Positions 16,901 to 54,300 of a DNA stretch of 64,000 bases are shown here, in pieces; within the stretch, counting starts at the first letter, position 1, and every line of letters begins with the position of its first letter. A program made the translations under genes and the position numbers. Below the pieces are notes generated by a model. The model made no database searches, was not told where the DNA came from, and saw only the letters and a program-made list of their open reading frames with translations. The stretch is from a virus: positions 2,562-66,561 of IMG/VR virus record IMGVR_UViG_3300020370_000004. The stretch is one strand, 5' to 3'.

Positions 16901-19900
16901 ACGATAGCATCCTGAGTAGTAGGTCTAATTGCCTGTAGTGCATACTCCCATGATGAGTCACCACGTAAGAATGTGAAGGAGTTGGATACACCTTTGTTTG
17001 CTAATCTCTCTGGGTCAACAGTACCTGCAACGATGTTAGAAGCATCAATGTTGGTAGATGTTAACTGTGTCCAGTTAGCAATGTTACTACCAGATGTATT
17101 AATTACTCTAGTAAGATCAATAATTCGTTTCCTAGAAACGTTACCAGTAGTGCTTGTTGATGTTGCAGAAGTTACTGTATACTCGTTAGCATTAACAAGT
17201 GTCATGGCATAGAAACCATCAGCACCTTGACCACTAGTAAAGTCTAAGTAAACTAGTTCACCGTTTGCTAAGTTGTGGCCAGTCTCACTGATAGTAATAG
17301 TATTAGCAGTTTGAGCATAAGTACCAGTTCCTAAGTTAGCATTTGCACCATCTAGAAGATAATCAGAAGCATCAAACTTGATGTTATTAGCAATGTTAAT
17401 ACTAACTCTACCTTCAATCTGAGCAGCAATAACTGCGTTATTGTTACTTGGTGAGTTAGGTGCAGTAACAGTTGGTTGTGTATAGTATCCAGAACCAGCG
17501 TTAGTGATAGTAACCTTAGTTACGATACCACTTGTTACGTTAGCAGTAGCAGCTGCCTGTACACCAGAACCTGAATCAGGTGCTCCAATTGTTAGTGCAA
17601 AGTCTCCAGTGTAGTCTCCACCACCATCACTGATGACGAAGTTAAATATTTGACCATCGTTGAATGCACTTACAGTACCACGAGCAGTAGTTGTACTACC
17701 TTGTACAATTCCCCCAACACTAAATGAGTAGTTCTGATCTGGTGTGAATGCTAAGAACTGACTTTCTAAGTCATTCTCCAAGATATATGAAACAGCAACA
17801 CCATCAGTTGTGAATGTATGAGTACCAGTACCTTGACCACTTAAAGTTAGCTCTTGGTTGTTATTTGCATTAGACTTGGTAGTTGACAGTTTAATTGTGT
17901 TATCATCAACCTTAATAACAAAGTACTTGGTGTTAGTCGATAGACCACCGATTGCAGTAGTACCCTGTGTATATGTAAATCCATCACCAGTGTTTGTTCC
18001 ATGAGAAGCAATGGTGATTGTATCGGCACCTGTGTTAACAGATGCAGGTGCAACACTGAATGATGTAGCAGTTGTTTGGATAGCAATGTCACCAGCTTGT
18101 GCGTTCTCAATTGCAAGTCTTTCTGCTTCAGATGTAACAGAGGTGATATTGAATGGACGTAAAGCAGGTATCTGGTCAATGTTGATCTTACCTGAAGATG
18201 TTAACTGAACCAGTGCAGATGGAACTGCGTTTGTTGAGTATGGCTGGTTAAGATATGGTCCTAAGTTATTTGAAATATAATCTCTAACAGATGCCTGAGT
18301 AGGTAGTAAACTATCAGATGTAAATGTTCCACCTAAGTTATCATCTTTAGAGAAACCTGTAATCGTAATGTCACCACCAACGATCTTAATAGATGATAGT
18401 TCAGAGATACTAACAGTACCAACGAAACTAATAGCACCAGTTCTGTTGAAGATAGTAACAAAGTTACCAACTTTAAAGTCACCAAACTCGTTAGTACCTG
18501 ATGTATAAACCTGTCCAAAGGATTCTTCTGCTGCTTCAAATGCAGTACCTAAACCAAATCCACCGTTCTGTGGTAGAGCAGCATAGGTGTTACCAGATCC
18601 AGAGTATTCCCAAGTGTGTGATGATGAGTTACATACAGATGGTCTGTGGAATTGGATTGCACGACTGACTAAGTTACTTAAGTTACCGTTAGCATAACTG
18701 TTTCTAGTGTTAGGAGATGCAGTATCGGTAAAGTCCATCGACCTGTTAGTTGTTATCTTAGCAACAACCTGTGTACCAGGTGCTCCACTAACAACCTCAG
18801 TTTCAAGAATGATATGCTCAACAGCAGGGTCTGTTGGATTAGTTCCACCAATTCTAATGATGTAATCTTCAACAGGAATGTTAGTTAAGGTTGTACCACT
18901 AACCTGAATGACCTGTCTTCCAGATTCAACTCCATTTCCATCAACGTCGTTAGTGATACTATCAATAACACCAATATCAAAGCTGTATGGATCTGTTCTA
19001 AATCCAGTAGCACGTAGTGAGTAAGTACCAAAGTTAGATGCTGAGTTAGTAACAGATGCATAACCACCAGACTGACATACGATACCATCTTGACAGAAGA
19101 TAGCGAACACAGACACCAACTGGGTGTAACCATCGTTAGTAACGTTATACGCAGTACCACCAAAACAGATGATAGTAAATGCGTTTGCAACCATCGACTT
19201 ACCTTGTGGGTCGAACTGTGCAATACTATTACCTTGCCCATCTAATTTAAGACCAGGTCTAGGTACGTTAGGTGTAGCAACCTTAGCACCGTCAATGTCA
19301 CAACCAGATCCACCCAAGAAGGAGATTAGGGAGGAGTTCTGGATGTAAGGTGATGCCTCAATAACAGGCAAATCTAAGAAGATATTAAGTAATGGGAACT
19401 TATATTTCGCAGCATCCTGCTCTTCAATAAGAGGATCTGGATTTGTAATAGCACCACTGTATGCAGTACCACTTGATAATACGTTATCTAATATACCCCA
19501 GTTAGTAGTCAACGCAGATACAACGTTAGCACACTCAGGTGCAGATGAATCTACTGTAATAGAACCATTAGAAATAGGAGTAATCTTCGAGAAGAAACCT
19601 GCTTCAAGGTCATTTCTTATTGCTTTGATACATAACTCTTTTGCGTATGCGTAGATCGCACGAGTGTAATCAATCTCTTCAGTAATATGTACGATTGCAC
19701 CACTACTGATATACTTGTTAGCAGCTTCAACAATTCCAGAGTTACCAGTATATCTAAGGTCATACTGGAATGCTCTAATGATATGAAGAATATCATCAAT
19801 ACATTGTTGATCGCCAGCTGAAACTGTTCTTGTGGTTGGAAGAGATCCATATCCACCAGCTTCAGTACCAATCGCAGTTGTAAGAATATCAAATAATGTT

Positions 19901-22900
19901 GTGACAGTAGATGCTACATCAGCACATGTTGGAGTAGATGCTGCTGTGTCTGTGGCATGAGAAAGACTGTCGTTAACAATTGCTTGCTCAACGATAGAGA
20001 ATAAAGTATCGACTGTTGATTTAACAGAAGCACATCCACCAGGTTCTACTGTAATTGTAAGATCTTTAGACTGATCAACACCATGCCAACCCTTAATGTT
20101 AACTGTTTCATTAGCAAGAACTTCTTGTGAGATATTACTTGCAAGTTCCATAACAGCACGTGCTTGGAATTCTTCTCCATCTACGTGAGGAGTTCCAACA
20201 AAGTAACCTGCATGGTCATAGACAGCATCGTTACCACCGTTAGTAAGGTTATATGCTACTGCTCTTAGAACATCAGATACGTCATCCTTACAATCCTGAT
20301 TATGGTTAGGAATTGTAAATCTTGGATTTGCTATTGGGTCAGTTGCACGAGGATATTTCTTAGTGCTTTGATCTCCATGAGTACAACTTAACTCTAGTGA
20401 TTCTACTGAAATCTTAATTGTTGACTTAGCATGGCTAATAGCATTAGCAGCAGAACTTTGATAGGTATGAGTTGTTGTATTAGTTGATGGAATAGTATCT
20501 AATACTTGTACATCAAATGTATTTGTGGTGACATTAAAACAGTTAATCCACTTATCAGCAATTGGGTCTGAAGAACGAGGATATGCAGTTGTTCCACCAC
20601 TACCATGAGTACAACTAAAGCTGATTGCACCGACAGCAAACTTAACTTTATCACCAGGTTGGAACCCGTGATTGTTAATAGTTACTGTCATTATACCCGT
20701 TGATGGGTTATATGCACCATTAGTAGAAGTATAAGTTTGAGGTGCAAGAAGATCATTAGCACCGATGTTTAATACTAGAGCACCAGTTGTTGCATTATAA
20801 GTTCCTGAGGAAGGTACATAGTTGTTAATTGTTGATGCAGTTGCTCTCTTAACTCCATTAGATGTTGCACTAATAAATGTGTGAGCATAGTTACCACCAG
20901 TAATAACTGAGTTACCCAATGCAGACTGATAAACGTGTGCACTTGTGTTAGATGAAATACCAACATCAATAGTAATTGTGCTTCCAGTTGTTGATACGAT
21001 AGGAACTGCAGTGTTATATGTCTTGTCTCTCTTCTGCTGAATACCATTAGTAGTAGCAGATATGAATGTATGTGTATCAGTATTAGTAGAAGGAATAGTG
21101 TCAAGAACCTGAACATCAAATGATGTTGATGTTACATTGAAAATCTTTTGCCACTGGTTGTATACAGGATCAGATGATCTTGGATATGTCTTCTTAGCAG
21201 CTTCACCACTTGCACCATTATATCCACAACTGAATGTGAAAGAGTTCTCATTAAACTTAACCCAGTCACCATTTCTCATACCATGAGCAACAGTTGTTAC
21301 TACCTTCATGATACCCGATGTTGGGTTATATGTTGTACCAGATGTTGCTGTGTGTGAATCTACGAGTGCTCTTGGATATGCGTGCTCAGTTGAATTACCG
21401 TCAGCACCACACTTAAATGTAACCGCACCTGTTGTTAGTTTAATATGTTCTTTAACGTGCTGAAGACCACCATTAGTTGCAGACACAAATGTGTGAGCAT
21501 CACTAACGGATACCGCTACACCACCAGTACAGTCGAAACTAAATGTGTTCTGAGTAACTCCCCAGATGTTTAACCACTTACCATCAGCATATTGACCTGA
21601 CTTAGGATAAGATTCATTACCACCACCGCCATATCCACAAGACATTTGGATACTTGCTGTAGCTACATTAATCTTATCTCCTTCTTGGAAACCGTGATCA
21701 TTAATAGTCACAGTCATTATACCAGTGCTAGTGTCTAATGTTGCATCAGTAACTGTATGTGATGTAGGAGCTTCAAGGTTATGATTACCTATGGTCAACT
21801 CCATAAGACCCGTTGTAGGGGTGTATACAGCGTTTGTAGGAGAGAATGTAACAGGAGGTGTAGTACCTACGTTAATATCAAAAGTATCCTGTGTAATGTT
21901 AGAAACACTCTTCCAAACATTAAGAGCTGGATCTGTTGCTCTTGGATATGTGTGCTTGGAGAAGTTGTCATCCATTGAACAAGTGAATGTCAATGAATCC
22001 TGTGCGACCTGTACTTTCTCTCCTACTGTAAATCCATGACTAGGAATTGTAAGAGTTAATACACCTGTGATTGGTTCGTAGTTAGCACCAGTTACTGTGT
22101 GCTGTGTAAATCCAGTATCGTTGTAAACAATTGCTCTGGTTACAGCATTGGTTGTTGCACTTGACCATGTGTGATTAGTAACGTCAGTATTTGCTTTACC
22201 AACATTAACTTTAATATTATTTGCGTCTACCTTCTGTACACCAATCCACTTGTTATACCATGGATCAGTAGTACGAGGATATGATTTAATTGAAGCATCA
22301 CTATCTAAGTCACATGTGAACTTAATAGACTCTGTGGCGAACTTAACTCTATCACCATCAACAAATGGGTGACCATTCATTGTCAAAGTCATATATCCAG
22401 TTAAAGGATCGTATGATCCTCCAGTTGGTGTGAACTGGTATGTGGATACACCTTGGAATGTATGTGCAGTTGTGTTAGTAGGAGTTGTTCCGTTTAGAGC
22501 ATTGATAGTAATCTCATTTCCATTTACTGCATCAACAGCAACGTCTGTTAATTTTGAGATAAAACGTTCAACAGATTCTTCAGAGATAAACTTGTTATTA
22601 GCATTCAATAAGTTTGCAGCATCTTGAGTTAGGTTAGGAACCTGTCCATATACTGCTCTATCTAAAGTAATTCCTGTATCGTAATACTGAGGAGCAAGAG
22701 TATGAGGATGTCTAAGGATTGGTAGGTTACGGATAACCTTCATTGCATATTCCTTAGCATAACCAAATGCTTCAGCATACCTATCTTTATTACCTGTGGT
22801 TACATAATGGAGATAGTAGTTTGCAGCATCATATACTCTGTCATTACCACCCCACTTAAGGTTGTGATAAAGTGATTTCTGTAAGAAGTCCTTAACATCA

Positions 22901-25900
22901 TCAGTACAATTTGTTGTACCACCTGTAGGAGTATATCCTCCGTTGGCAGCAAGCATTTTCTTGACTGCTACTTCAGCAATCAATTCAGCATTATTAGCAA
23001 TTAGATCTGCACCATCACCTTGCTTGTTGCTTACAGGGAATGTGTTTGGAGTTCTATATGGTTTTCTAACATCATTGAATGAACCATCAGTACCAGTTGA
23101 TCCAGTAGAAACAGTTGTCTCACCAAGGTCTAGTGTAAATTCTCTATGATCATATACGTCATGGATAGCCCAAGTACCATTAATACCAGCAGTAGAACTA
23201 CCTGAAATTGTAACACCAGCAGATACACCAACATTAACAGTAACTGTACCAGAAGCATCTACTGCTGTGATTGGTAGAGTAGCACCGTATGCAGGATCTG
23301 TTGCTCTTGGATAGGCATGAGAAGTAGCATGGTTGTCTCTAGAACATGTAAAACTAATAGCACCATTAGCGATAACCAATGTGTTAGCAGTTGTATAACT
23401 GTGTGCACCGATTGTTAATACAAGATCACCTGTTACAGGATTATATGTTGCATCAGTTACATCTTTCTGAACACTACCCTGTGTAATTGTAATAGCATTA
23501 GATGCTGTACCACCATTGTATATGTGATGATGATTTCTAAATCCTTTACTTAAGTTGTGACCAGTATTGACCTTAACTTTAAGTAAGTTGTATGTCAAAC
23601 TCCACTCAGTAATAGGATGTGTAAATGTATCTCCTAATGCATTGAATGTTGTTGGTCCTATTGTAAGGGTACTAGTTCTAGTATTAGAACTTTCATAATG
23701 AGATTTAACATATCCGTATGCTTCTTCTGCAATAAATTCTTGGTTTCTCTTAATAGATTCAGCACCATCTCTATATCTCTCAGTCTGAGAAATCTTAGTA
23801 AATCCATAAGGAGAGTTCCTTAAGGATGCTAGAACGTAGTTACTAGATGAGATAACTGTTTGGTTACCAGTTGGATTTAAAGTCGCTGAGAATGTACTGA
23901 TAGCAGCTCTTACAACAAACTGGAGTGCGTATCCATCAGCACGTTCAATACGATGTGTGATGTACTTACGTCCATTAAGATCCTCAACGTTATCTAAGAC
24001 ACTGACTGTAGAACCAGTAGCAGTTGCAGTATTAGTTGTTGACTGAATATTTGCTGTCTTTAATACGAAGGTGATAGTTGTGTTAGAACTATTGTACCTA
24101 CCATAACCCATACCTAATGCAGTGTTGCCAGGTAGAGATGGAGTACCAGATCCAAGATCAAATTGATCAATATGATATGTCTTGCTTAATGCTTCAGATC
24201 CAGTTCCACTAAAGTTAAATTTAAGACCACATTCTCCAAGAGTTACCCAGTTACTGAAATGACCACTTGTAAGAGTATTGTCTACTCCCGAAATAGTAAC
24301 AGTAACTTCACCACTTGCTAAAGACCAAGAAGTGTTAGTGGAAGCACCGAAGTTAACAGCAGAACTTTGGAAACCATATAAATGAACTTCCTGTCCTACT
24401 TCATAGTCATGATAACCTGTACCAGCAAGAGTAAAGATAGGACCTTTATATGTTTGCTGTGTAGCAATAGTAGTATTAATTGTTGCAACAGATAAAAGAT
24501 TAGATACATTCTCAAATCTTTGATATCCGTGACCAGTAGTATTAAGAGGAAGAGTTACAGGATTATCTACTCCCTGTGCATCTTTCTGTACAGCGTTGGC
24601 AGCAGATGCTGCAAGTCTAAACCAATCTTTGTTTTCTCTATAGACATAATATGTGGTTCCTTCAACAAGACCATCAATACCGCCCATTTTACTTGAGCGA
24701 TATACAATACCATCACCAGTTGCATATTGATGTTGTGGAACCCTGATATTGTTACTTTCTGGCATTATATTGCCACAAGTAAACAAGTGAAGTTTTGTAT
24801 CAGTAGATACCGCAGTGAGGTCTTTTATGCCTGTAGTACCTATGGTTGCAGTAGCATTGGTATAAGTATCATACAATTCAACAGTATTGGTATCAATTAC
24901 TCTGACATAATATATCGTGTTATCAGCAAGACCTGCAAGAACTGTTGCTTCATCTTTTTGATAGTATACAGCAGAACCAGTTTCAAAATAATGACCAGTA
25001 ACTGTAATGCGATTGGTTGTAAGGTTAACCTTAGTAGCATCACCAGAGAATGCTTCAAAGTATCTTTCTGAATTAACTGTGTGCTGATAGATCTGATTAG
25101 AGATAGTCTCTAGTTCAGGTCTTAATGATTCAGCATCAGCAACGTCAAATCTATTTGATACACTTGCATTATTAAGGTCAGTAATAATATTTGCTGCTAC
25201 AGCATCATAGAATACTTTTTCAGCGTCTTGGAATACATCGTTAACACCTGATGTAATTAAAATCTTACATGTACCAGTTGAGTATGGCGATGCATCAGGA
25301 CCTGTGAAGGTAATCTCTTGAATAGTACCCAATGTACCAGAAGATCCACCTTGTACAAAGTAACCAACTACGAGAGTAGTATTGTTACCTGTGTGGTTGG
25401 TAAAGGTAATATTGAAAAGGTTATCACCACGGAATTTATCACCAGGAACTGCAGGTATCTGATATAGTTCTGGTTCGTAGTATAATCTTTGCTTATCGTC
25501 AAATACGAATGCATACTTCCAAGTATGAATTACAGTACTTTGTGGGTCAGAAGGATTCTGAAGTGCGTCTCTGAATACAACACCAAATACATACGTCTCA
25601 TTAGACGCTTTAACCATGTGACGATCTTGGTTTTGAGGTCTAAGAATAACACGACGAAGGTTGTCACCAATTAGTGAACAGTTCCTAGGAAGTGAAATTG
25701 GGTTGTCTTCAAGGTATTCACCACCAGATACGATCAGTGAAACGTACTCATCACTAGGATCTGGGGTTGCTTTCTGTAAAGTATAAGCAATCTGTGCTGC
25801 TTTCTTAACAGTTTTTACTGGTCTTGCAGCTGAACGACCATCATTTTCATCATTACCAATGGTCTGAGAGACATAAACACGACCACCAGTGTCGTTAGTA

Positions 25901-26577: not shown

Positions 26578-26590
26578 TAGTTCCCAACTA

Positions 26591-27124
26591 TTATGATACG
26601 ACTGTGATATCTAAAATACCAATCCACTTAACAGTAGAATTGGTTGTCACGGATTTTACCTCAAATGTAAAATATGGAGCACCTCCGATTAAGAAGGCAT
26701 CTGGCGTTACTAGCCAATCCTCTTGCCCAGGAGGATTGTTCTTAATAATGTTTTCGTGTGTAGCAGATACTGTTGGAGTTCCATCATTAGCTGTTGTCAC
26801 GATGACATCAAAACTTGTTGCGTAGACATACTGATTATTGGTAGTTTCCTGTCCAAAAATCTTTGCTGTAATAAAAGATACTCTATCCGCAGCAAGCGGT
26901 GGAGTATTTGTTGTGAGTGCAGTTGTACCATCTAAGGTTAACTGTAATGTGTTATTAGCAGCATCTGTCACTCTCTTAGTAATGTACTTATCATGTACAG
27001 CGTCGGTAAAATTATTACTAGTCATGTGAATAGCACTGATATTCTTCAGTGCGTACTCTGTATTACAGACTTCAGTAGATCCTACTGCAAATCCCCCGAT
27101 AGATGAGAAATTCTTTACTGGCAT
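26591..27124 (-). CDS. Putative virion structural protein (177 aa)
   Basis: KNFSSIGGFAVG start, beta-rich; own TATAAATA late promoter. Confidence 0.75.
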   Translation of the reverse strand: MPVKNFSSIGGFAVGSTEVCNTEYALKNISAIHMTSNNFTDAVHDKYITKRVTDAANNTLQLTLDGTTALTTNTPPLAADRVSFITAKIFGQETTNNQYVYATSFDVIVTTANDGTPTVSATHENIIKNNPPGQEDWLVTPDAFLIGGAPYFTFEVKSVTTNSTVKWIGILDITVVS

Positions 27125-27145
27125 GACTCTATATTACCTAAGGTT

Positions 27146-27153
27146 TATTTATA
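27146..27153 (-). promoter_or_regulatory. T4 late promoter TATAAATA
   Basis: Exact tatttata on the + strand, overlapping the stop of the 2450-aa gene, about 22 nt upstream of the ATG at 27124. Confidence 0.8.
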
Positions 27154-30100
27154 CCTTCACTTTGGTGGTTGTATACCTACCTGTGAATGATGACGATGTT
27201 GTTGCTGCGGATGATTTATTTAAACTAATATTGATGTTGTTAGCAGCAACTGAAATCGTTGCATCAACAAGATCATTATCAGAAGTAATTGAGTTAGTAA
27301 CCGTAGCATGTGCAGTTGTACCACTTGCACCACAGACAGCTGTTACTTCAAGCATTTGAACTTTACCATCATCACTTTCAATAGTAATAAGAGTTTTTGA
27401 TCCTTTATATGCTGTTTTATCAAACGCTGTAATTGATGCGTTAGAAGCGAAGGAAGTTAACTGTCCTCCCTCTACTCTGCAGTCATCTAATTCAACGAAA
27501 TCAGCAGTAGAGTCGAAGACTGTTAGGTAGCTTTCAGTACCACCAGACCATCCTCTATTAATCTTCCACTTACATTCTGATGCATTAGCATCTAATGAGA
27601 TGAATGCTTTAGCATCCAATCTAGTTATGTAATCCTGAAGGAGAACATCGTTTCTAGCGTATGGGCTAGTTGGATTAGAAATAGTATCTACCCTTATAGT
27701 AACGTCCTGTGTAGGAGTTAATCCACCAAGAGCAGTACCTGCTATTGTTAATACTTCACCGTCTCCAGATGAAGGAGAAGATGCTGCTTCATATCCAGAA
27801 CCACCTGCGTTAACAGCAACCGTTGTAACAGTTCCATTTGCATCAATGGTGATATCTAATGTCGCTCCACTACCTTCAACAGATGCTGATGTTGCGACTG
27901 CAGTGAATGTTGTGGATGCAGTATATGATGTTGCAACCTGTGTAAGGGTAGCAGCATCAAGAGTAGCAACAGTACCCTGAGTAGGTACATTACGTAGTCT
28001 TAAACCACCAGAAACTTCAAGGTCTTTCTTTGATCTAACTGATACAATATTCTGTGCACCAACTAAAACATTGAATGGGTTAGTATCAAAACTAGTTCCC
28101 TTAAGTGTGAACCCACCAGTAATTGTTGCAAGATGAGATGACTCATAAACAGTATCCGTCATGTTCGATTTGAACGTTAGGGTAGTGTTATTCAATGAAA
28201 GGTTATTAATACCTGCAGCATAGAACTCAAATGTGTCTTCATCAGAACCAGGTGATGCTTCAGTTAATATGTAAGTATCTTGGTCAACGTCACGAACACC
28301 ACCAAGAGATACAAAGTCAGTTCCATTATATCCCTCGAACTGTAACTGAGTATTATTAAATCTTATCGCACCAGTTAATCTGTCATTAGCAAGTGGACGT
28401 TGGTTTGTAGTACCAGATGGAATAATAAATGATCCAGTTGACTTAACATAGACACTCTTACCACCGCCTGGTTTTAGTGTTAAACCTTGACCCTGTGTGT
28501 CAAGAATAGTAATAGTGTTTCCAGATCCACCACCAATCGTAGCAGGGTTAAATGTGATCTCTTCTCCAACATAATAGTTGTGACCTCTAGCAGTAGGTGT
28601 TACTGTTGCAGCAGTAATCGCACCACCAGATACTGTGACATCAAAGGTTGCTCCTAAACCAATACCAGTCGTTGCGGTTACAGTACATGCGGTGTAAGAA
28701 CCATCAGTGTAACCTGTTCCTGTACCAGTAATACCAACTGTGACTATCTCACCGAAAGAGTTAGTACCACCAATGTCTGCGTTTTCAATAGCAGATGTTA
28801 CGAACTTAAGTTTCTCATCAACTTTTAAAGTACCAGTTATTTCTGCATCACCAGTCTGAGTGTCTACTTTTAATTTGTTTTGTCCAACAACACCATCGTT
28901 AACCACAAATTCTCTATTAGTTCCACCAGTGATGATCATGTCACCTTCACCTTTAGGAGTGATGGTTACAGGAATGTCAGCATCTTGACCTGCAGCAGTT
29001 AGTACAGCAGCGTTGTTAAGTTGAAGTCCAGAGTTTGCAGTACCAACAGTAAGAGTTTCAGCAGTAGAGTCTACCTTAAAGAATGGAGCTGCATTACCAA
29101 TAGTACTATCAGCAATAATATCACCTGCAGTTTGTATACTGGTTGCAGAGAATACATGCTTTTGTACTGTATCATGAGTAATACTAATTTCATCCTCAGC
29201 TGATCTGTAAAAACCAGTAGTAGTGTCTGCTGATAGGTAAATGCTAGGAACGAGATTAGTACCATTCTGGATACCAATCTTACCATTTAAGATGTGGTTG
29301 TCTAGACCATTAGCTGTAATATTATCTGTGAAGGATGATGTACCAGTAACACCAAAGGTTCCACCAACAGTAGCGTTGGTTCCGATGGTCGCATTACCAG
29401 TAAAGTTTGCATTTACAGATGTAACAGTATTATTGGAGATGGTAGTATTGGTAGCATCACCGATACCGATTGTTAAATCACCTGTGGTTGAGAAAGAATA
29501 TTTGTCTGATGTTAATGAACCATCACCAGAGATAGTTGTGATACCAGTAGTGTCAATAGTATTTGCTGTCATAGCAAAGTTACTACCAGCACCCATTCCA
29601 CTAAACTGTAATGTATCAAATACTAGATCTTGCCCACTGAAGAAACCTGCTCCTCCACCACCTGTGGATACAGCAGCAGTACTAATATATCCTACCTTAG
29701 TTACGTTAAATACGAAACCAGAACCACCACCACCGCCAAGGTTAGCATCATCAGCAGATAGTTGATCACCAACTTGATATCCTGATCCAGCTGCTTGGAT
29801 GTTAGTTACACTAAAGACACCAGTGTTATCACCAGTGATTGTGTATAAGAAACCAACAATGTCACCAATAAGAGAAGTACTTGTTACTCTAAGTTCGTCA
29901 CCTACCTTATAGTCAGAACCTTGCATACCTGTTGCAAATTCTGCTACAGTAACCACACCACCTGCAACGGTGATGTTCATCTGTGCACCATGACCATATT
30001 CACCTGCAGTACCTGCAGTAATGTTAATTAAGGCATTTTGCGACATAACACGACCATGTACCGAACACTCGTAGTATGCAGTGTTACCTATTGTAGCACC

Positions 30101-34643: not shown

Positions 34644-34655
34644 GTTAATAAAGTT

Positions 34656-36900: not shown

Positions 36901-36916
36901 TCTTTTACAACTATAT

Positions 36917-36938
36917 TATTTAGCTTAACTTTATTTAT
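36917..36938 (-). promoter_or_regulatory. Tandem late-promoter motifs CTAAATA (36917-36923) and ATAAATA (36932-36938)
   Basis: tatttag and tatttat on the + strand upstream of the ATG at 36900. Confidence 0.6.
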
Positions 36939-37155
36939 CTTCTTTCTCAATCAAACTCTTTACAAGACTTTTTAATTCCGCAACCTCACCCTTTAAAGCA
37001 TCCATTTCTGCTGCTTTTCTTCTTGCTTCTGCACGTGCCTTCTTATAAGATTCATACGCACTCAGGTCGGTATTTATTATCGCATTAGAACTTGGATCCC
37101 TACCGAGTGAGTTGTGTCCTTCGACAGGGATCAGTTCAATTATGTCTTTTTCCAT
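36931..37155 (-). CDS. Hypothetical protein (74 aa)
   Basis: VEGHNSLGRDPSSNAIINTD...coiled coil; TAATG-coupled to the VrlC-like gene. Confidence 0.75.
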   Translation of the reverse strand: MEKDIIELIPVEGHNSLGRDPSSNAIINTDLSAYESYKKARAEARRKAAEMDALKGEVAELKSLVKSLIEKEDK

Positions 37156-43847: not shown

Positions 43848-45362
43848 TTAGAATTCAATTACTACTTTTAGCTCTTCGTTTTGATCCGCAGATCTTGTGA
43901 TCGGAATCCTATTATCTATGTACAGCATTTCACCTGAGTTTAGTTCTATTTCTTCGTTGGCATAACCAGTAACGAATGAAAGACCTAACTCATATACAGA
44001 TACACCAATAGTTATCTGTGATAGGGGAACACCTGCAGTACCAAATGTTGCATCAGGAGTTGCAACAAATGATGATATAGTACCTGTAATCTGATTTGAA
44101 CCAGAGAAAGGAATAATATTACCATTTACAGTACCATCAACCGCATCTTGATAATATTTCAAGACCTTAGTTGTGGAATTATATGAAACCACAAAACCTT
44201 TTGCTCCTGTGGTTGCCTGTGTAATAGTCTCACCTGTTTGGAAATCTCCACTAGGCATACCAGTACCAGACTGAGGGAAAATCATTGCTTTAACAGCAGA
44301 TCTTGTATTCTGACTGCAAACAGATGTGGTATTATAATCAAATGGGTTTAGTACAAGACCAACCCTTCTATATGATAAGTCATTAGGGAAGTCAACAAAA
44401 GCACTAGTAGTTTCTAACTTACTAGTGAACATGAGACGATATGAACCTAATTCTCTAACAGCATCTGCACCGTGACCACCTTGAGGAGGTAATACAACGT
44501 CAAGTGCTGCATTAGTACCATTACCGATATTAGTAATGAGTGCAACATCAATAGTTGCAAAACTATATCCAGAACCTGCTTGAGTTACAGTAACTGAAGC
44601 TATAGCACCAGAGACAACAGATACAGTACAAAGTGCCTGTGTACCACCATTAATAGACCAATCCCCACGAATAGGAACATTAGTATATGTACCGTTGTTA
44701 TAACCTGCACCTGCGTTCTCAATAACAACAGTGTCAATCGAACCTGGGTTAGCAGCAGATGTAACTAAGCTATTTGATAATACAGGAACAAATTCTGAAG
44801 TAACAAACTTTAGAATGTTGTCAGCGTCAATAGTATAGAGATATTTCCAACGATAAGAATATACGCCAGGACTATCTGATGTTTCAATGATAGTTGTTGA
44901 TGTACCAGTTGGTTCAACCAATGAAGGTCTACCTCTTGGGTAATCTGGATCTTGACCATTATAAAGACATTTATAGACGTTAAAGTCTGAATTCATAACA
45001 TAGAAGTTACTGTCATACAGTCTAGAAGAACCGTTTGCAGTAGTTTTTGCGGGTGCATAATCTGGTTTGTACATTGAATATGTACGACCAACTCCACCAG
45101 TTGTATTTGCTGGATCAATCCAATCAACTCTAGGAACTACTAATGAAGTATCAGATATATCAACTCGCTTAAAAGCAACGGAATCTTGATATGTAGTCCT
45201 TGCATACTCAAAACTATCAATAGGCTCACCAGCAGGTGGGATGTCAGAAGACCCCCATGTCTTCGCCCTACCGACGAACATGTACACTTTGTTGGAGCTT
45301 TGCAGAGTGTTTCTGAAGCTCTCAGCAGCATATATTCTAAATTTATCAGTAACTAACGCCAT
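43848..45362 (-). CDS. gp8: Baseplate wedge subunit gp8
   Basis: VVPRVDW, FYVMNSDFNVYKCLYN, YRWKYLYTI, GGHGADAVRELG, SGEMLYIDNR.PITRS.DQNEELKVVIEF. Confidence 0.9.
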   Translation of the reverse strand: MALVTDKFRIYAAESFRNTLQSSNKVYMFVGRAKTWGSSDIPPAGEPIDSFEYARTTYQDSVAFKRVDISDTSLVVPRVDWIDPANTTGGVGRTYSMYKPDYAPAKTTANGSSRLYDSNFYVMNSDFNVYKCLYNGQDPDYPRGRPSLVEPTGTSTTIIETSDSPGVYSYRWKYLYTIDADNILKFVTSEFVPVLSNSLVTSAANPGSIDTVVIENAGAGYNNGTYTNVPIRGDWSINGGTQALCTVSVVSGAIASVTVTQAGSGYSFATIDVALITNIGNGTNAALDVVLPPQGGHGADAVRELGSYRLMFTSKLETTSAFVDFPNDLSYRRVGLVLNPFDYNTTSVCSQNTRSAVKAMIFPQSGTGMPSGDFQTGETITQATTGAKGFVVSYNSTTKVLKYYQDAVDGTVNGNIIPFSGSNQITGTISSFVATPDATFGTAGVPLSQITIGVSVYELGLSFVTGYANEEIELNSGEMLYIDNRIPITRSADQNEELKVVIEF

Positions 45363-45382
45363 TACTTATAAGCTTTATTGGT

Positions 45383-45390
45383 TATTTATA
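45383..45390 (-). promoter_or_regulatory. T4 late promoter TATAAATA
   Basis: Exact tatttata overlapping the gp7 stop, about 21 nt upstream of gp8. Confidence 0.8.
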
Positions 45391-48300
45391 ATGATCTCAG
45401 ACGAACTTCTGGAAGGAGACTTACGTTTCCGCTTGTTGTGAGATCATAAGGAATTTCTACTGTAAATGTGGTAGTTCCAGTAACAGTAACTTTGTATGAA
45501 CCATTAATAACATGATCATCTCCGCTTACTGTCATACCACTCGTGAAATTTAAGTACTGATACATGTCAGTAATTAAATTATGAGCCGCAGAAGTCGTTA
45601 CAGTACAGACATTTCCACTTGAACTAAATGTTCCAGTTAATATAGTGTGAGCATGGGCTGTTGTACCCCTATATCCTCTACCACCAGTTGCCACAGTTAA
45701 TGTATTGGCAGATGTATTCTTTGCACCATAGAGAATTCTCTCTGCAGTCCAATGCTGCTTAACCGTATTATAGAACGGAATAATCACTTCTGCTTCATCT
45801 GGGAAACCATATTTCTGAGAAACATCGTACCAGACATTCTGGAGATTTAATGTAGTATCAGCAGCTGTTATAGTACTAGTTAGGAAGGAATTGCCAAGAA
45901 GATTTGAATCTGAGATAATTCTATTTCTTTGCTTCCTTTCTAGATGTAATGGATGAGTTGGTAAGACCGTAGGAACAGTAACGTAACCATTACCACCTTT
46001 TAAGTTCTTAATACCAATAACTTTACCACTACCTTCTTCAATCTCTGTTTCGGCAAATGCACCTCCACCACCGCCACCTTGGAATAATAAGAATGGAGGA
46101 TTTTCATAGTTAGAACCAGGATTGGTTATAGTAACCTGTGTCACTTGTTGACCTGATACAGTTGCAACAAACTCTGCAGGTATTGGTCTTAAACCTACGT
46201 ACTCATAACTGTCAATAGAAGTAGAACTAGAGACTGTAGCAATCAGTCTGTCATTTCCTTCACTCACAACTTGAAGTCTATCACCAGGATCAACAGAGTT
46301 GTATGTCTTGCTGACAAGAACATCTTCTGCAGAACCACTAAAGATAAACGCAGTGCAATCAGAACCTGCTCTTGGTGCTTCACTAAACTCAATAATAGAT
46401 CCTCTCAAGTTATATGCTGTTTGAGGTTCTTGGAATACACCATTGATAAAGATCAATAGGTTATTCGATGCAATAACAGAAGTATTATCAGATTCTAAGG
46501 ATATTGGTTCATTATCTCTCTTCATAGTAAAGTTCTTCTTACTATTATCAAAGAATGGTGTAAGATCATCAATAAGTTCTAATTTACCAAAGTAGAACCC
46601 ATAGAAGTCCATTCCTGATAGAGGTGCTTCATTAAAGGTTAATGTACTTCCAGTATATGTGTATGATTGTGTACTACCCTTAACCTGAAGTGTACTATTC
46701 AAGAAGATGAGGAAGTTATCCTGTGCGGGTAGTACTTGTGTACTACCGCCTACTTGAGCAGTAAATGTTGTATCAGATCCATCGAAGGTTACAGTACCCA
46801 CTTTGATTTGGAAGTCAGGAGAACCCGACGAAGTTCTAGTAATACTATTGAGGTTTCCAGAACCACCAGCTGTAGTACCAACAGCAGTAGTAACAATACC
46901 AAAGAGAGTTGTGATGGTTGAAGCAACGTCTGTACAGTCATTAGTGTCATAAACATTGTTTCCACTATCATTAGTTATGTTCAAATCTTTGATCTGAGAT
47001 CCTTGAGTGGTTGAGTTAGTTGTAACTGTGATATTACGCATAACTTCACGACATATATCTCTAGCAGCATTGAATACCTCTACTGACTGATCTTCTTCAC
47101 CAGTCAAGTGTACAGTTCCAACATAGAAGTTTGCTGCATCATAGGTAGCATCGTTTCCACCAAATTCTACGTTATCAGCAACAGCATCACATATTAACTT
47201 AGTATCACGAATACACTTGACCTTATAAAGATCACCATTGAAACTTGGGTTAGCAGCAAGCATTCTACCATATGCAGTAGTTGCAATAAACTCAAGGTTT
47301 GCACGTATTAATCTACCTGCGTCTGCAAGTTTGTTATATGCATATACACCATGTGTGACAATACCCCTTGTGACACTATTTGCATTAGCAGTCACAAATG
47401 TATGTCTATCACCTGTCTTAACAGCACCAGCATTGGCAGCAATAAATTTATGAGTGTAATTACCACCTGTGATAACTGAGTCTGCTAGGGCAGATGAGTA
47501 AGCATGAGAGTAGGTATTTGTACTCTGTTCAGTAGTAAGAACGTCAACACTAATAGTAGTTGCTGTTGTTGCAGTAACCTTTAATGCAGTGTCAAAGAAT
47601 GGGTCACGTTTCTTCTCAAATGGTGCAATAGTAATAGCATCAGCATCACCAAGAATGAATGTGTGAGTAGTAGTATTAGTTGAAGGTACTGTATTAAGAA
47701 CCTGTACATCAAATGAGTTAAATGTAACATTTGATACAGGAAGGAACTCTTGACTTGCAGGATCCTTTAATGTAATTCCATTTACAGCACCAGTAGTAAA
47801 TGTATGAGGTGCAATATTTGTTGAAGGAATTGTACTCAATACCTTAACAGTAAAGGTGTTAGCAGTCCTTGAATATACTTCTAACCATTTGCCACTAGCA
47901 TAGTCTCCCGATCTTGGATATGCAGTAGCAGCAGTAGATGCTGCAGTACCAACTTGAACTGTAATAGTATTAGCAGTCTCAGCAAGAATTGGTAACACTG
48001 CTTCGTATGCAGGGTCAGTAATTCTTGGATATGTGTGAGTAGTAGCATTACTATCTTCATCACAAGTAAATGTTAGAGAGTTAGCAGCAATTTTAACAGT
48101 ATCACTTGTTGTGTAACTGTGATTGCCTATAGTCAATTCTACCTGACCATTTGTGGGATTATAAACCGCATTAGTTACATCCTTCTGAGTATTGCTGTCT
48201 GTGACCACAGTAACAGCATTAGTAACAGTACCACCAACGTATGTGTGTGGGAATGAACCCGCAGTACAACTGAATGATACAGCACCATCATCAAATTTAA

Positions 48301-51300
48301 TCTTATCACCAACCTGAATTGCATGGTTGATAGTTGTGGTGACAACCATAAGACCTGTATTAGGATCGTAGGTAGTACCTGCACCTGCAGTATATGTTGC
48401 TTGAGATGCTCTAGGATAAGTCTTATTACCTAAACCTTGTGTACAACTGAATGTCAATGAATCATCTTTGAGTTTGATGAAGTCACCATTAGATAAACCA
48501 TGACCAGTTTTAACACATTTTGCGGTAGCACCGATGAAGGTATGAGGTACAGCATGACTGATAGCACCCTGTCCACCATTTACATTAATTGTGATTGAGG
48601 TAGGTGTATATGATGTGATTGGAATATCAACGTTATAAACATAATCATTACCATTTGATCTTGGATATGTCTTAGTTTGTGTTACACCATTATATTCACA
48701 ACTCCATGATAATGAATCGGTGTCAAGTCTAATCTTACTCAGAGTTGTTAAGTTATGAGTACCAATAGTCAGTACCATATCACCTGTTGTCGCATTGTAA
48801 GTAGCATTATTAACATCAAACTGCTCAACATTGATTGTCATAATTCCTGAGGTAGCATTATATGCAACTGTCTCAGGTCCCCTAGTAGGTAATGCACTGA
48901 ATAAATGGGTATTTGTATTGGTTGAAGGTATTGTGTCAAGAACGACAACATCAAATGTATTATTTGTAACATTTGATACCTTTAACCACCTATCATATGC
49001 ATAATCTGTAGCACGTGGATACTGTTTCTTGGCAACGTTGCCATCTAGACTACATGTGAATGTTAGTGACTCTTGCTTGAATTTAATCCAGTCACCATTT
49101 ACCATACCATGTGCCAGTGATGTAACTGTCATAATGCCATTGTCAGGATTATAATTAACACCTGTCACATCAAATCCATCTGTCAATGATCTTGGATAAG
49201 ACTTAGTAGCAGTATTTCCGTCCTGTGCACAGGTAAATGTTACAGCACCCTCTGCTAATTTGATGCTCTTACCAGCAATAATATTATGTGAACCGATAGT
49301 CAATTCCATAACCCCTGTGGTTGGGTCGTATGTGGCATCTGTAGGGGTGTAATTCACGATAGGTGACTTACCAACGTTTACAGTAATAACGTTGCCTGAG
49401 ACTGCTTTAACAGCAAGTGGAGCATTGAATGCAGGATCGGTTGCTCTTGGGTAAGAATGACGTGTTGCTCTGTCATCCATTTCACAAGTAAAGATTAATC
49501 CATTCTCTTCAACAGTAACAAAATCTCTTGCCTGTCTAATACCAGCACCTTGAGCACCAGCAAATGTATGAGTAGTAGTATTGGTTGATGGAACAGTCTC
49601 TAAACACTGAATAGTAAATGTATCATTTGATACATCAAAGACTTCTACGAACTTATTACTGATTGGGTCGGTTGATCTAGGATATGTCTTAGTACCTGCA
49701 CCATGAGTACATGTGAATGATAATGAATCATCTACGATCCATACTCTGTCACCATTAGACATTCCATGACCAGTTACTGTAATAACAACCTTACCATCAG
49801 CAGGTGTATACACAGCATTAGTTGCTGTATGTTCTATTGGAGCAAGTAATGAATGATCACCAATAGTAAGTGTCATGTCACCAGTAACAGCATTATATGT
49901 GGAGTCAGATGGTGTAAACTGGAACCTCTCACTTCTTCCAACGTTAACAGTAAATGCATCAGTAGTAACACTATCAATTGTTACCCATGCACCACCAACA
50001 GGATCAGAGATACGAGGATATGTGTGGTTAGTACTGTTGTTATCTTTAGAGCATGTAAATGTTAATGAGTCAGTAGCGATCTGTATTCTGTCACCTTTGT
50101 ACATTCCATGATTAGCAGCAGTAAGTGTCATTTCACCTGTTGCAGGAATATACTTAACTTTAGATGGTTGGAATTGATATGTCTTTAATCCTTGCCATGT
50201 ATGAGCATCAGTGTTAGTAGGAGATGTACCTTGTAAAGCATTAACTGTAATAGTAGTTCCAGTTGTTGCAGTAATAGGAACATCAAAGAGATTACCAATA
50301 GGGTCTGTGGAACGAGGATAGTTCTGATTTCCACCACCACCGTAGCTACATGAGAATATTAGAGCATCATTGGCAATTCTAACTGTATCATTAGTTGTTA
50401 GAGTGTGATTACCAATATCAAGAACTAAAAGACCACTAGCAGGTGTATAAGTTGCTGTGGAAGGAACGTAGTTAGTTGTTAACTGTTCTCCTATCTCAGA
50501 TAGACCTAATACATCATCTTCAGTATATCCATTACCTGCTTGATTTAAGACAACATTAGTTACCTCATTGCCTGCAACCGTAATATCTGCAGTAGCACCA
50601 CTACCAGAACCAAGTCTGTTCTTCAATGGTACATTTAGATAAGTTCCATTACTATATCCATCACCAGGTGTTAAACCATTAGCAACATCAAATGTCTTGA
50701 TCTCATCTCCAATAGTATCCAACTGGAAACTAGAAACATATGATTGACGATCATAGTACATTGCAATGACTGAACTTCCACCCAATAATGGTTTATTGAA
50801 TGTTATAATATCACTTGCATATGTGTAATTAGAAGGGTTCTGAACAATACCATTAGCAAGAACAAATAATTGATCTTTATCTGGAGTTTTACCTATTCTA
50901 GTAGTAAATGGAACTCCATTCTCAGTAAGTTTAAATTGAGTATTAACACCATCAATAAAGCACCTAAGTGTATGACCTGAACCAGTACCAACGCTAGTTA
51001 AGTTAATTGCAGGTCCACCAGGTATGGATCTAATTTCAATAGTATTTGCGTCAACATATTTGACATAATATTCATTACCATTTGTCAATCCAGTAACAGG
51101 GGTTCCTGTTCTAATATTTGGATAATTACCTTCGTTTAGTTGAGGTAAAGTAGATGGATTATCAATACCATCAGTCATCAACTTAGCAAGGGTTGTGATA
51201 GCTGATGTGACAGTTGCACAACTGTCTGAGGCTAGTGTAATACTGAGGTCAGAAACTGGGTTTATAGTCGTGTACGTTCCCGCAGGTAGGTTGTTGACTA

Positions 51301-54300
51301 CCGCAAGGTTCATTAAGTCTCTTGCTTTATTGATTGCATGAATAGTCTCAGTCTCTTCTCCTTCAATATGTAAGATGTGATTTGCAGGATTAGTTCTAGT
51401 TACAGATGAGAGGCTATCATTACCAATAGCAGTAGTAACAATATTGAAGAGAGTGTCCATCGCAGCATCAACTGTCGCACATATAGACGCATCGAATGTA
51501 ACTCCTGTATTTGTTGTTTGCGTGTAACCATGTTGTCCTTGAATAGTAATAGAGGTGTTAATGATAATTTGAGCAGCAAACTCTTTTGCCTTGTTAAATG
51601 CCCATACTGATTGTGTTTCTTCACCATCTAGATGGACTGTATTTACATAGAAATTGGCAGCATCCCATACTTCACTATTACCACCATAACGTAAATTATA
51701 AGCAATTGCTTCGATGACATCAACGATATCATCCTCACAGTTCTGACTTCCACCAGGTACGCCAGGATAACCAGATGGTATACCAACTGTCTGATCTTGT
51801 AACATTTGATACACTGCTTCAGCAGCAATTAACTCTTTATTGTCTTTTAGGAGGTTAGCAGCGTCAATATAAGCATTACCCTGTGATACTGTCTGACCAA
51901 CATAAGAATTGATTGCTGCTAAACTAAACTGATTACCACCATATCTTAAATCATTAGCAAATGCTGCTAATATTAGTCTTGTATCTCTAGCACAAGTTGT
52001 TGAATTGTATACAAGAGATGGATATGTGTAATTTAGATCACCAATAACCTCTTCAACAATATAATCAATATTCTTAATAACTAAATCCCTAGCATCTTGG
52101 AACCTATCTCCACCAGAGTTATAAATGACACGTTGATCATCAAGTAAGTTATGACCTGTAAGAGTTATTCTATTATTAGATACATCAACGATAGAAGAAG
52201 ATGAACCATCGAATGAAAGTGATCTATCACTAATATCATCTGCCTTATATGCAATACAAGATAAGATCTTTTGAATATCCAATAACTGCTTACCAAATAC
52301 CTGAACCTCAGTTGGAACTGCTGCAGTATAATCTGCCTTACCTAGAGCAAAGTTCTGGATCTGAGACATCTTACCAGTTGCTCTAGCAGATGGTTTAGGA
52401 ATGATATATGTTGTACCATTAAAGGTAGATCCTATACTATTTGTTGTTGGAACCCACCAATCAAATGAATTACCTGCATTAAGATTAAGAGATGGTTTAG
52501 ATCTAAAGTCTTTAACACTTGCTTGTGATAGTACTTGTGTACCAACGACTTTAAAACCTGCAGGATGAGCAGCATACTTAAGTGGATTCTTCCAATCATT
52601 AATATTAATAGATGATGAGATATCATATGAGAATTCCTGATACCTGTCACTGTCATATAGTCTCTGTTCGTTAAGATCTAAGAAACCAGTTGTCTTTTCC
52701 CATGTGGTTGCTGATGTACTGATTGGAGAAACCTCAAATACAGCATCTGCCCTAGTAAACTCATGGATCTGACCAAATGCAGCAGTCTCTTCACCAAATA
52801 CAGGTTCACCGACTAAGAACTCACCTTCTACGATCTCCACACTAACAACACGTCCAGAAGCATCCCAGTTCTTAACATAACCATATGCAGTATATGATGC
52901 AGTAGATGCACCCTGATAGATCCTCTCTCCGACAGAGAAAGTAGCAGGTTTCATAAACGCAGTAATGACATCACCTAAGTCAGTAGTCTGCAATGTGAAG
53001 TATGTCTGTCCTGTAACGGGATCACCAACTGGAGCTGATGTAAATGAGATAGTAGTACCAAGATTAGCATTTGCAAGCGATGTAGCAAGTTTAATCTGGT
53101 TATCTGCTAGTCCATTTGCAGTGGTTGCTGCTACAGCATAATATGTTGTATTCTCTGCTATTCCACCAGGAAACTGACCAGTAAGTTGCTGAAGGGTTAC
53201 TTTTGTACCTGTTGGTATCTTAGTGTTATATGGGAAGTTAAGAGTGTTATTAGAAGTCAATCCAACCCATGTATGAGTTACTCTTGCTTTAACTGTAGGA
53301 GCAGCTAGGAAACCTCTACCTTCATTAATAATATTGATTACCTGTATAACTTCATTCTCAACAATTGCCTGTGTCTCATATAATGATCCACTACCACCCT
53401 CTAGAACAATCTCAGGTGTTGATACAAAGTTTGCACCACCATTAGTAATAGTGAAGTAATCAAGAACCTGAGTTCTTGTCAACTGAAGGTTATATGTGGT
53501 ATTGAGTTCAGGTTTTAGAGTTCTATCGTGAGAATAGTTAAATGTAATATTATCACCAGCAATCTTAAGTATCTTACCCATGTCTGATGACTTGAGTAGT
53601 ATAGAAGCACCAGAACCTGTTTTCTGAGTAATATTAACTACTGGAGCACTTTGATACTGAACACCACCACTTTCTATGTTAATAGACTGAACACCCTCAT
53701 TAAGGATAGTAGCATTGAACTTAGCATTAATACCGTTACCACCACTAACTTCGATATTAGGAGCAGATAGATAACCAGATCCAGTATTTGTAACAGTTAT
53801 TGTATCAACGGATGCATTTAATAGAGTAGAGATGGTTGCAGGATTAGCATGTGCCAGTTGATTAACTGTCACAGTAAAGTCTTCGTTAGATGCACCACCT
53901 GGTATCTTTGTACCATCAAAAGTGATAACATCACCTAATGCATATGCAGTACCACCTGCAGTCACTGTGACAGTAGAAATCCTTCCATTACCATCTGTGA
54001 CGACTGTGAAAGTAGCACCTGTACCATTGACAGGAGCAACACTGGTTTGAGTTACACCAGTCGTAGTCTGGTCTGCGGTATATGTTCCATTACCAGCTGG
54101 TTGAACTAACGTAGTAACGGTATCCACAGATCCATAGTAAGGATCATCAAATATAACGTCTGGAGCAGACCTATAATTCGATCCTTGGTCTGTAACAGTC
54201 ACTTCTGTAAGTGCACCACCACCAGAGACTACAGTTGCCACAAGTGCTTGAGTTCCACTTATTGCACTAATAGAAGCTTGTGAATCCGCACTATACAGAT

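Follow-up and report, generated by a model that had tools for sequence, protein, structure and literature searches.

Do some cyanophages carry bilin pigment on their own particles, and could light in that way influence how they attach to their hosts? The question is raised by a 64,000-nucleotide (nt) stretch of the IMG/VR virus record IMGVR_UViG_3300020370_000004 (positions 2,562-66,561; "the window" below means this whole stretch), in which a giant tail-fibre-type protein and a giant gp7-type baseplate protein contain domains that resemble phycobiliproteins (PBPs). An original prediction, made from the DNA alone, had placed six such domains in these two proteins and proposed that phage bilin genes pigment the virion itself, for light-gated attachment, photoprotection or mimicry. 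We find that the six domains are almost certainly genuine homologues with the globin-like phycobiliprotein fold, built into the fibre and gp7. Whether they carry pigment, and to what end, is weighed below.

The window, part of a 66.5-kb fragment with a completeness estimate of 37%, corresponds to a T4-like cyanophage's module for tail and baseplate. Its baseplate protein gp6 shares 79.5% identity with that of P-HM2, 79.4% with MED4-213 and 79.1% with P-HM1 (tblastn), all Prochlorococcus phages, which places the window's source among T4-like cyanomyoviruses of the P-HM-like lineage.

Six phycobiliprotein-like domains in two giant virion proteins

We scanned all six frames of the whole window with A2, a domain profile made from 41 sequences. 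Ten segments matched (19465-52123, minus strand), solely inside the open reading frames (ORFs) of the fibre and gp7, and the span first given for the domains, 19478..52105, proves correct within about 20 bases. The two proteins and the ten segments are listed here, with protein residues (aa), matched A2 positions and E-values.

13969..26577, minus strand: giant tail-fibre-type protein, 4202 aa, with three PBP-like domains (F1 to F3), recognised from its ORF and PHROGs matches
23683..23790, minus strand: fibre segment a, orphan helices A/B, aa 930-965; A2 8-43, E 8e-6; proposed N-terminal part of F3, the outermost of the nested domains
22654..23049, minus strand: fibre F1, helices A-G, aa 1177-1308, motif CTDD, Cys1224 (codon 22906-22908); A2 4-135, E 7.6e-44
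22552..22638, minus strand: fibre segment c, orphan helices A/B, aa 1314-1342; A2 10-38, E 2.8e-4; proposed N-terminal part of F2, with an array of FTC..YPR-type repeats next to it
19951..20331, minus strand: fibre F2 body, helices E-H, aa 2083-2209, motif CKDD, Cys2096 (20290-20292), Cys2182 (20032-20034); A2 38-167, E 7.4e-48
19846..19941, minus strand: fibre segment b', an extra last helix, aa 2213-2244, Cys2218 (19924-19926); A2 134-161, E 7.4e-8; proposed C-terminal part of F1
19465..19833, minus strand: fibre F3 body, helices E-H, aa 2249-2371, motif CIDD, Cys2259 (19801-19803), Cys2349 (19531-19533); A2 41-161, E 1.8e-36
45386..59740, minus strand: giant gp7-type baseplate wedge protein, 4784 aa, with three PBP-like domains (G1 to G3), between gp6 and gp8
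51875..52123, minus strand: gp7 G1 N-terminal part, helices A-F, aa 2540-2622, motif CARD, Cys2583 (51992-51994); A2 6-90, E 6.4e-23
51392..51892, minus strand: gp7 G2, complete and inside G1, aa 2617-2783, motif CEDD, Cys2668 (51737-51739), Cys2754 (51479-51481); A2 6-169, E 2.2e-67
51149..51370, minus strand: gp7 G1 C-terminal part, helices G/H, aa 2791-2864, Cys2841 (51218-51220); A2 86-162, E 2e-15
46832..47359, minus strand: gp7 G3, complete and contiguous, aa 4128-4303, motif CIRD, Cys4176 (47213-47215), Cys4269 (46934-46936); A2 3-169, E 1.1e-70

The 4784-aa ORF is called gp7 because of its position between gp6 and gp8. Its match to the Pfam Baseplate_wedge family is weak (19.7 bits, below the 27-bit cut-off), and homologous stretches in phage isolates carry the annotation "baseplate wedge initiator". 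The full-length fibre matches no Pfam family at E<=0.01; its domain segments match PHROGs families of tail fibre, short tail fibre and virion structural proteins (phrog_4527, 5342, 18802 and 701).

The pattern C..D occurs 17 times across the fibre and gp7; six of these sites head helical domains, and C-x-x-D is present in all six, as had been claimed. When the domains are aligned with one another, a C, a D, a G and an N are invariant.

Several of the domains are not contiguous. The fibre segments pair by complementary coverage of A2: segment a with the F3 body (8-43 and 41-161), F1 with segment b' (4-135 and 134-161), and segment c with the F2 body (10-38 and 38-167). In gp7, the N-terminal part of G1 (6-90) pairs with its C-terminal part (86-162), with the complete G2 (6-169) in between. 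The fibre parts thus run a, b, c ... c', b', a', which is the order expected from successive domain insertions. On the strength of this complementary coverage, four of the six domains appear to be split and nested like Russian dolls. The three-piece layout of G1, G2 and the remainder of G1 (profile 1-91, 10-168 and 85-159) recurs in 23 related loci; in an AlphaFold model of this 335-aa region (pLDDT 74.7, pTM 0.54), all 50 structural matches listed fell on G2.

Pairing of the split parts also bears on the claim that every domain has a second, C-terminal Cys. With the parts paired, all six domains have one (fibre C2349, C2218 and C2182; gp7 C2841, C2754 and C4269), placed directly before the last helix or in its first turn; read as contiguous stretches, only four of the six (F2, F3, G2 and G3) show a later Cys ahead of the final helix.

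Relationship to phycobiliproteins

Four independent kinds of search point to the same family. A profile of the six window domains returned 46 PDB sequences at E<=10, comprising 42 phycobiliproteins, one "bacterial fluorescent protein" and three unrelated proteins (best E 7.8e-4), and in its alignments the domain Cys falls on the PBP chromophore Cys. With A2, 110 PDB sequences were found at E<=1 (best E 2e-5), and 59 of the 60 listed were PBPs. In a set of 1.84 billion, the domain profile also picks out 1141 representative proteins (E<=1e-3), some of them with as many as 35 matched stretches. When ten of the homologues were scanned against PF00502, the Pfam PBP family, six passed its cut-off (61.2, 46.6, 44.8, 44.6, 27.7 and 27.7 bits), one fell below it (20.6 bits) and three had no match.

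The structural comparisons agree with the profile searches. The AlphaFold2 model of G3 (pLDDT 87.2, pTM 0.86) gave 12 Foldseek matches at E<=1e-3, and 38 of the 39 matches listed were PBP chains. Against 48,161 chains in VIA-align, its top eight matches all belonged to the PBP family (Z 16.3 to 12.1), led by phycoerythrin beta (5aqd_M, Z 16.3, 2.8 A root-mean-square deviation (rmsd) across 150 residues), with a photocobilin (Z 10.8) and globin sensors (Z 10.6) below them. G2, a C-x-D-D copy, aligned with a PBP beta chain (7ssf_F, Z 16.7, 2.4 A rmsd across 142 residues). The first helix of the model corresponds to PBP helix A and the fold spans helices A, B, E, F, G and H; sequence alignments begin at about PBP residue 30-38 in nearly all rows and the best structural alignments at about 31-35. 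Sequence identity between the domain and PBPs is about 16-23%.

Not all of the evidence points this way. The N-terminal X-Y helices, through which PBPs form alpha-beta dimers, are absent from the domains. Pfam scans of the full-length fibre and gp7 gave no PF00502 match, and the family scored 17.5 bits, under its cut-off, in a six-frame search of the window; the sole window segment with a direct match, the N-terminal part of G1, reached 20.3 bits (E 5.9e-4) against a cut-off of 22.2. Such sub-threshold scores, together with PDB E-values that are moderate (2e-5 at best), are what a chance resemblance or a convergent helical motif, with no PBP homology, would produce. That explanation is nonetheless hardly credible, given that the matches are almost all PBPs in four independent searches (profile against PDB, Pfam on homologues, Foldseek and VIA-align), that the alignments are collinear across about 140-150 residues, and that the motif coincides with the PBP chromophore Cys. 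The presence of six PBP-like domains in the fibre and gp7 is borne out.

Conservation of the chromophore-site residues

In the CXRD motif, the Cys is described as binding ring A of the bilin, and the Arg and Asp as hydrogen-bonding other parts of the chromophore (PMC10151467). We aligned 1445 copies of the domain from 152 proteins. Their identity is otherwise about 25-35%; at the motif, Cys occurs in 98%, Arg (+2) in 92% and Asp (+3) in 99% of the copies. The family consensus, K-C-x-R-D-[VI]-G-Y, contains the CXRD motif, and the motif is CxRD in 1258 copies, CxDD in 57 and CxED in 17. In the window, Cys and Asp are present in six of six domains and Arg in two (CARD and CIRD), with Asp in the place of Arg in the other four. 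Among the orthologues of the gp7 domains, G1 keeps C, R and D in 23 of 23 each, G2 keeps C, D and the second Cys in 23 of 23, and G3 keeps C, R and D in 41 of 41 and the second Cys in 39 of 39. Conservation of the Cys and Asp across homologues, on which the original prediction had staked itself, is therefore well established.

The copies fall into two subclasses. Proteins of the first have 12-32 tandem copies, all CxRD and lacking a second Cys; those of the second, which include the window proteins, have 3-6 copies with CxRD and CxDD mixed and the second Cys present. In the many-copy relatives the motif Cys is nearly the sole Cys of the protein (23/27, 22/27, 18/21 and 15/16), so it has no disulfide partner and an intradomain disulfide is excluded. 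A disulfide role for the first Cys, which we had considered, is ruled out by this census.

Of the 580 copies whose alignment reaches the column of the second Cys, 36% have it. In Nostoc phycocyanin, beta-Asp39 is described as holding the pyrrole nitrogens of the beta-155 bilin, and Asn35 a propionate (PMC6614406). An N-x-x-x-D-A stretch of the domain aligns with beta-Asn35 to Asp39-Ala40 of that protein, and Asp at the beta-Asp39 column is the best separator of copies with and without the second Cys (94% against 13%; counts 96, 34, 6 and 230). This link is suggestive and no stronger, because the two subclasses are also two lineages. Taken together, the residues suggest that the domains keep both sites of beta-type PBPs: a Cys82/84-type site with its Asp (C-x-[RD]-D), and a beta-153/155-like Cys with an Asp39-type Asp, the second being a weak match (1.3 bits in the sub-alignment, with a collinear structural alignment).

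Distribution among phages and other genomes

Among phage isolates the domain is confined to cyanophages. A tblastn search of 50,697 phage records with G2 found 359 with the domain, named as phages of Synechococcus (282), Cyanophage (60), Prochlorococcus (16) and Marine (1). The same kind of search with gp6 found 2375 T4-like records, mostly from enterobacteria, Vibrio, Aeromonas and similar hosts, and the domain occurs in none of the approximately 1900 T4-like records from non-cyanobacterial hosts (hosts taken from organism names). With a many-copy relative as query, the matches to non-cyanophages were limited to the first 60 residues at the N terminus, which are not part of the repeats. Pelagibacter phage Mosig, a member of the Kyanoviridae with a heterotrophic host, has no domain match.

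A many-copy protein also has relatives on IMG/VR contigs of up to 270 kb. We searched five such records, two of them complete (270,865 and 252,603 bp), and found neither psbA nor psbD in any of the five. Both complete phages have adjacent genes for haem oxygenase (HO) and ferredoxin-dependent bilin reductase (FDBR), with 13 and 25 domain matches. The HO-FDBR pair of the large phages adjoins genes for thymidylate synthase, GroES and GroEL, and about 25 CxRD domains sit in one protein of 4828 aa, after which comes an ORF of about 290 aa that has a single domain. The nearest relatives of the large-phage capsid protein are those of an uncultured 484-kb phage (56%), Flavobacterium phage immuto (52%) and Microcystis phage Mel-JY01 (52%).

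When 185,579 prokaryote genomes were scanned for the motif K-C-x-R-D-[VI]-G-Y-I, 12 candidate stretches emerged, from which five relatives were recovered: one in an uncultured Gammaproteobacteria assembly, one in a Chitinophagales metagenome-assembled genome (MAG) and three in Rhodobacteraceae MAG contigs of very different coverage. They may be mis-binned phage sequences or may hint at heterotrophic hosts.

Light-dependent adsorption

Five phages with published behaviour in the dark allow the domain to be compared with phenotype. P-HM1 and P-HM2 are reported not to adsorb in the dark, P-SSM2 to adsorb in the dark less than in the light, and the podovirus P-SSP7 to adsorb and replicate in the dark (PMC6628666). 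S-PM2 adsorption is described there, citing Jia et al. 2010, as needing light independently of host photosynthesis (PMC6628666). The domain profile gives 6 matches in P-HM2, 6 in P-HM1, 13 in S-PM2, 0 in P-SSM2 and 0 in P-SSP7, and Pfam's own PBP model agrees. The domain thus tracks published light-dependent adsorption in five of five phages. We found no further phage with a published dark-adsorption phenotype in the literature searched, and the match is a lead and not a test, because the five phages represent no more than four independent lineages: P-HM1 is nearly identical to P-HM2, and a podovirus, P-SSP7, is among the five.

Bilin genes and cpeT

According to PMC10452541, T-type lyases, the class to which the cpeT product belongs, serve the Cys-153 site. 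A direct search of the 66.5-kb record, estimated to be 37% complete, found no CpeT; the nine window proteins scanned against Pfam include no HO or FDBR, CpeT being the sole target of a direct search of the record. Among other phages, P-HM1, P-HM2 and S-PM2 have cpeT, as do two of three near-complete relatives, whereas P-SSM2 and Mosig lack it. Six more cpeT phages, chosen before the domain had been seen in them, all proved to have it (6/6), so that the domain occurs in 11 of 11 cpeT-bearing phages tested; this is not significant alone (about 1 in 10 by chance), because the domain is found in roughly three quarters or more of cyanomyovirus records.

The cpeT gene of S-PM2 shares its strand with the PBP-like fibre gene and is located 1.45 kb upstream of it; the two are within 7 kb of each other, on one strand, in 13 of the 20 phage types in which both positions are visible, types that are probably related. 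The nearest isolates to the window, P-HM1 and P-HM2, have cpeT about 35 kb from the domains, and the two are thus not adjacent in the window's lineage. No relative of S-PM2 CpeT turned up in the scan of 185,579 prokaryote genomes. For P-HM1 CpeT, Gasper et al. reportedly did not find direct pigment transfer to a host subunit in 2017, a result that we do not use as evidence. Also in S-PM2 (NC_006820.1, 165928-177267), 16 tRNA features lie inside the 3779-aa coding sequence of a "short tail fiber protein" under one locus tag, which looks like an artefact of annotation coordinates.

FDBR genes follow a different pattern. They occur in four of four near-complete relatives of the window's type, not adjacent to the domain genes, and in P-HM1, P-HM2 and P-SSM2; S-PM2 and P-SSP7 have none. 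Mosig encodes ferrochelatase as well as HO and FDBR, and in its genome (MT647606.1, 36653-43279) the ferrochelatase, three 2-oxoglutarate-Fe(II) oxygenases, HO and a PcyA-like FDBR stand directly beside the neck genes. The expected correlation between the domain and bilin genes therefore stands, weakly, for cpeT (11/11) and fails for FDBR and HO, with P-SSM2 and Mosig lacking the domain and S-PM2 lacking FDBR.

Possible roles of the domains

We propose that the domains would be loaded with bilin while they fold in the infected cell, where phycoerythrobilin and phycocyanobilin are plentiful. The first, Cys82/84-type site could be filled autocatalytically or by host S/U-type lyases, and the second by a T-type lyase of host origin or by CpeT from the phage itself; phages of the P-HM-like lineage also bring along genes for haem oxygenase and bilin reductase. 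The adsorption apparatus would thereby become pigmented, with light-dependent attachment as the leading candidate role. Loading in the cell, the assignment of lyases and the effect of light are steps that we infer. We judge the prospect that virions carry covalent bilin through these domains to be evenly balanced. Light-gated adsorption through them is a tentative idea and rather unlikely, and a bound bilin that is purely stabilising or photoprotective is nearly as likely as light gating. The boldest version would make many marine cyanomyovirus particles pigmented photoreceptors, in which phycoerythrobilin from host or phage enzymes is bound to the fibre and baseplate domains, CpeT loads the beta-155-like Cys and light acting on the bilin switches adsorption on, would explain the dark failure of P-HM1, P-HM2 and S-PM2, and would extend the module to large psbA-less phages with HO and FDBR; as a whole we consider it unlikely. 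Mimicry of host antennae, also suggested at the outset, has nothing in its favour and was rejected, as virions presumably meet the cell surface and not the thylakoid.

Could the domains instead work without pigment? A PBP gene fragment captured by an ancestral cyanophage might serve as a rigid spacer, knob or oligomerisation unit, its C, R/D and D kept for folding or for packing between chains. We regard this as a serious possibility that falls short of probable. It fits the position of the domains within long modular structural proteins among other repeats, their tolerance of large insertions and nesting, the loss of the X-Y helices, the Arg-to-Asp change in four of the six window copies, the lack of detectable cpeT in most domain-bearing records (cpeT in 113 phage records, the domain in 359), and the fact that no pigmented virion is reported in the literature searched. 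It leaves unexplained the persistence of exactly these three chromophore-site residues (98%, 92% and 99%) across 1445 diverged copies, the lone partnerless Cys in each domain of the many-copy proteins, the joint retention of the second Cys with the Asp39-type Asp, and the restriction to phages with access to bilin from hosts or their own genes. The conserved Cys might also serve other thiol chemistry, by forming intrachain or interchain disulfides that lock the fibre, or by binding a metal or some cofactor other than bilin. The two or more Cys per domain in window-type copies, the oxidising medium that generally surrounds virions and the neighbouring FTC..YPR repeats with one conserved Cys each would suit such a role, but the second Cys is kept in 36% of 580 copies against 98% for the first and is wholly missing from the many-copy relatives, the equivalent positions in PBPs are far apart, and the flanking Arg and Asp are bilin-site residues and not typical metal ligands of Cys sites. 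We consider thiol chemistry improbable.

A bilin-bearing virion, the reading we favour for the domains, has to be held against several observations that weigh on the other side. In four of the six window motifs, the Arg that bonds the chromophore in PBPs is replaced by Asp, and the low count of cpeT records given above tells the same way, as does one 94%-complete relative that has the domain and no cpeT. P-SSM2 has FDBR, and Mosig HO, FDBR and ferrochelatase, with no domain match in either; S-PM2, with 13 domain matches, lacks FDBR. Shared ancestry in one family, the Kyanoviridae, confounds the restriction to cyanophages. Neither bilin on any virion nor PBP-like domains in phage structural proteins are reported in the full-text literature searched, in which subscription journals are sparsely covered. 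By our estimate, which takes 6 gp7 copies and 18 fibre chains per virion by analogy with T4, with three domains of two sites in each, complete loading would give about 144 bilins per virion; the absorbance would be about 0.02 at 1e12 and 0.2 at 1e13 particles per ml, and such a colour could easily have escaped earlier work. As for light gating, PBPs are generally not photoswitches. BBAG globins bind bilin with no lyase, and the holoproteins tested are described as photoinactive or photoinert (PMC10151467). For both reasons, a signalling mechanism is missing.

If virions do carry bilin, they would to our knowledge be the first chromophore-bearing virus particles known, and the domains, found in more than 1100 representative proteins, would add a new branch to the phycobiliprotein superfamily. 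The matter bears on how some cyanophages adsorb only in the light and on what the phage lyase CpeT acts on, and, if true, on the diel infection dynamics of the most abundant marine phototrophs. It also touches the bilin-synthesis genes of phages, including some that probably do not infect phototrophs, the reason for which is left open in PMC11480375. The isolates P-HM2, S-PM2 and P-SSM2 make both virion pigment and light response testable at the bench.

Other features of the window

The long ORFs of the window all lie on the minus strand, and two further baseplate genes flank gp7:

59747..61600, minus strand: gp6 baseplate wedge protein (Pfam PF21379, E 2e-21, and PF21387)
43848..45362, minus strand: gp8 baseplate wedge protein (PF09215 Phage-Gp8, E 6.9e-13)

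Pfam also recognises a 2230-aa DUF4815 protein and a 2450-aa laminin-G protein among the remaining ORFs. In the N-terminal third of gp7, at aa 676-1104 (56429-57715, minus strand), are a carbohydrate-binding module of the CBM_5_12 family (26.5 bits) and a YHYH domain (96.3 bits), both candidates for receptor binding by the baseplate.

Both giant proteins contain a second family of repeats, with eight copies in the fibre (20347-23352) and nine in gp7 (48023-50356), all on the minus strand. The unit is about 60-110 aa long, has one conserved Cys and carries the signature [F/W/M/L]-[S/T/K]-C-x(3-14)-Y-P-[R/K]; this FTC..YPR type matched no Pfam family. The fibre array, about 740 aa, sits within the split domain F2.

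Comparison with known systems

The closest known proteins are the PBP beta subunits (CpeB, CpcB and the cryptophyte beta chain; PF00502). The window domains share with them a globin-like fold that runs from helix A through H (Z 16.3-16.7, rmsd 2.4-2.8 A, 142-150 residues), the Cys of the Cys82/84 site with its Asp and, as a likely further match, a second Cys where beta-153/155 lies, with an Asp aligned to beta-Asp39. PBP beta subunits are free chains of about 170 aa, whereas the window's are domains of virion proteins of 4200-4800 aa; they lack the X-Y helices, four of the six are split and nested, four of the six have Asp for Arg, and their bilin binding is putative.

A PBP fold inside a large multidomain protein is also found in ApcE, the core-membrane linker, whose structure 4xxi_A aligns with G3 at Z 14.0 (1.9 A rmsd across 117 residues). 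The bilin domain of ApcE has a short insertion in the loop that joins helices B and E, the place at which two fibre domains are split by insertions of about 740-1280 aa made up of other domains. ApcE is a component of the cellular phycobilisome, unlike the phage virion domains.

The BBAGs (bilin biosynthesis-associated globins), photoglobins and photocobilins, which bind bilin in non-photosynthetic bacteria, are, like the window domains, PBP paralogues outside the antenna, some of them with CXRD or CXQD motifs (PMC10151467), and the photocobilin match (Z 10.8) is weaker than those to PBPs. BBAGs are small soluble globins encoded beside HO and FDBR genes, while the window domains are parts of giant structural proteins.

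Among phages, T4 offers the same gp6-gp7-gp8 order and tail-fibre PHROG families, and the domain itself is unseen in the approximately 1900 non-cyanobacterial T4-like records. Compared with T4 gp7, the cyanophage proteins have 4 to 5 times the length. Cyanophage CpeT (PF06206), a T-type lyase often encoded next to the fibre gene and not found in this record, is the proposed partner of the domains. Set beside these systems, what is new here is the nested splitting of the domains, their occurrence, among 50,697 phage records, in cyanophages only, their match to the light-adsorption phenotype and their presence in 11 of 11 cpeT phages.

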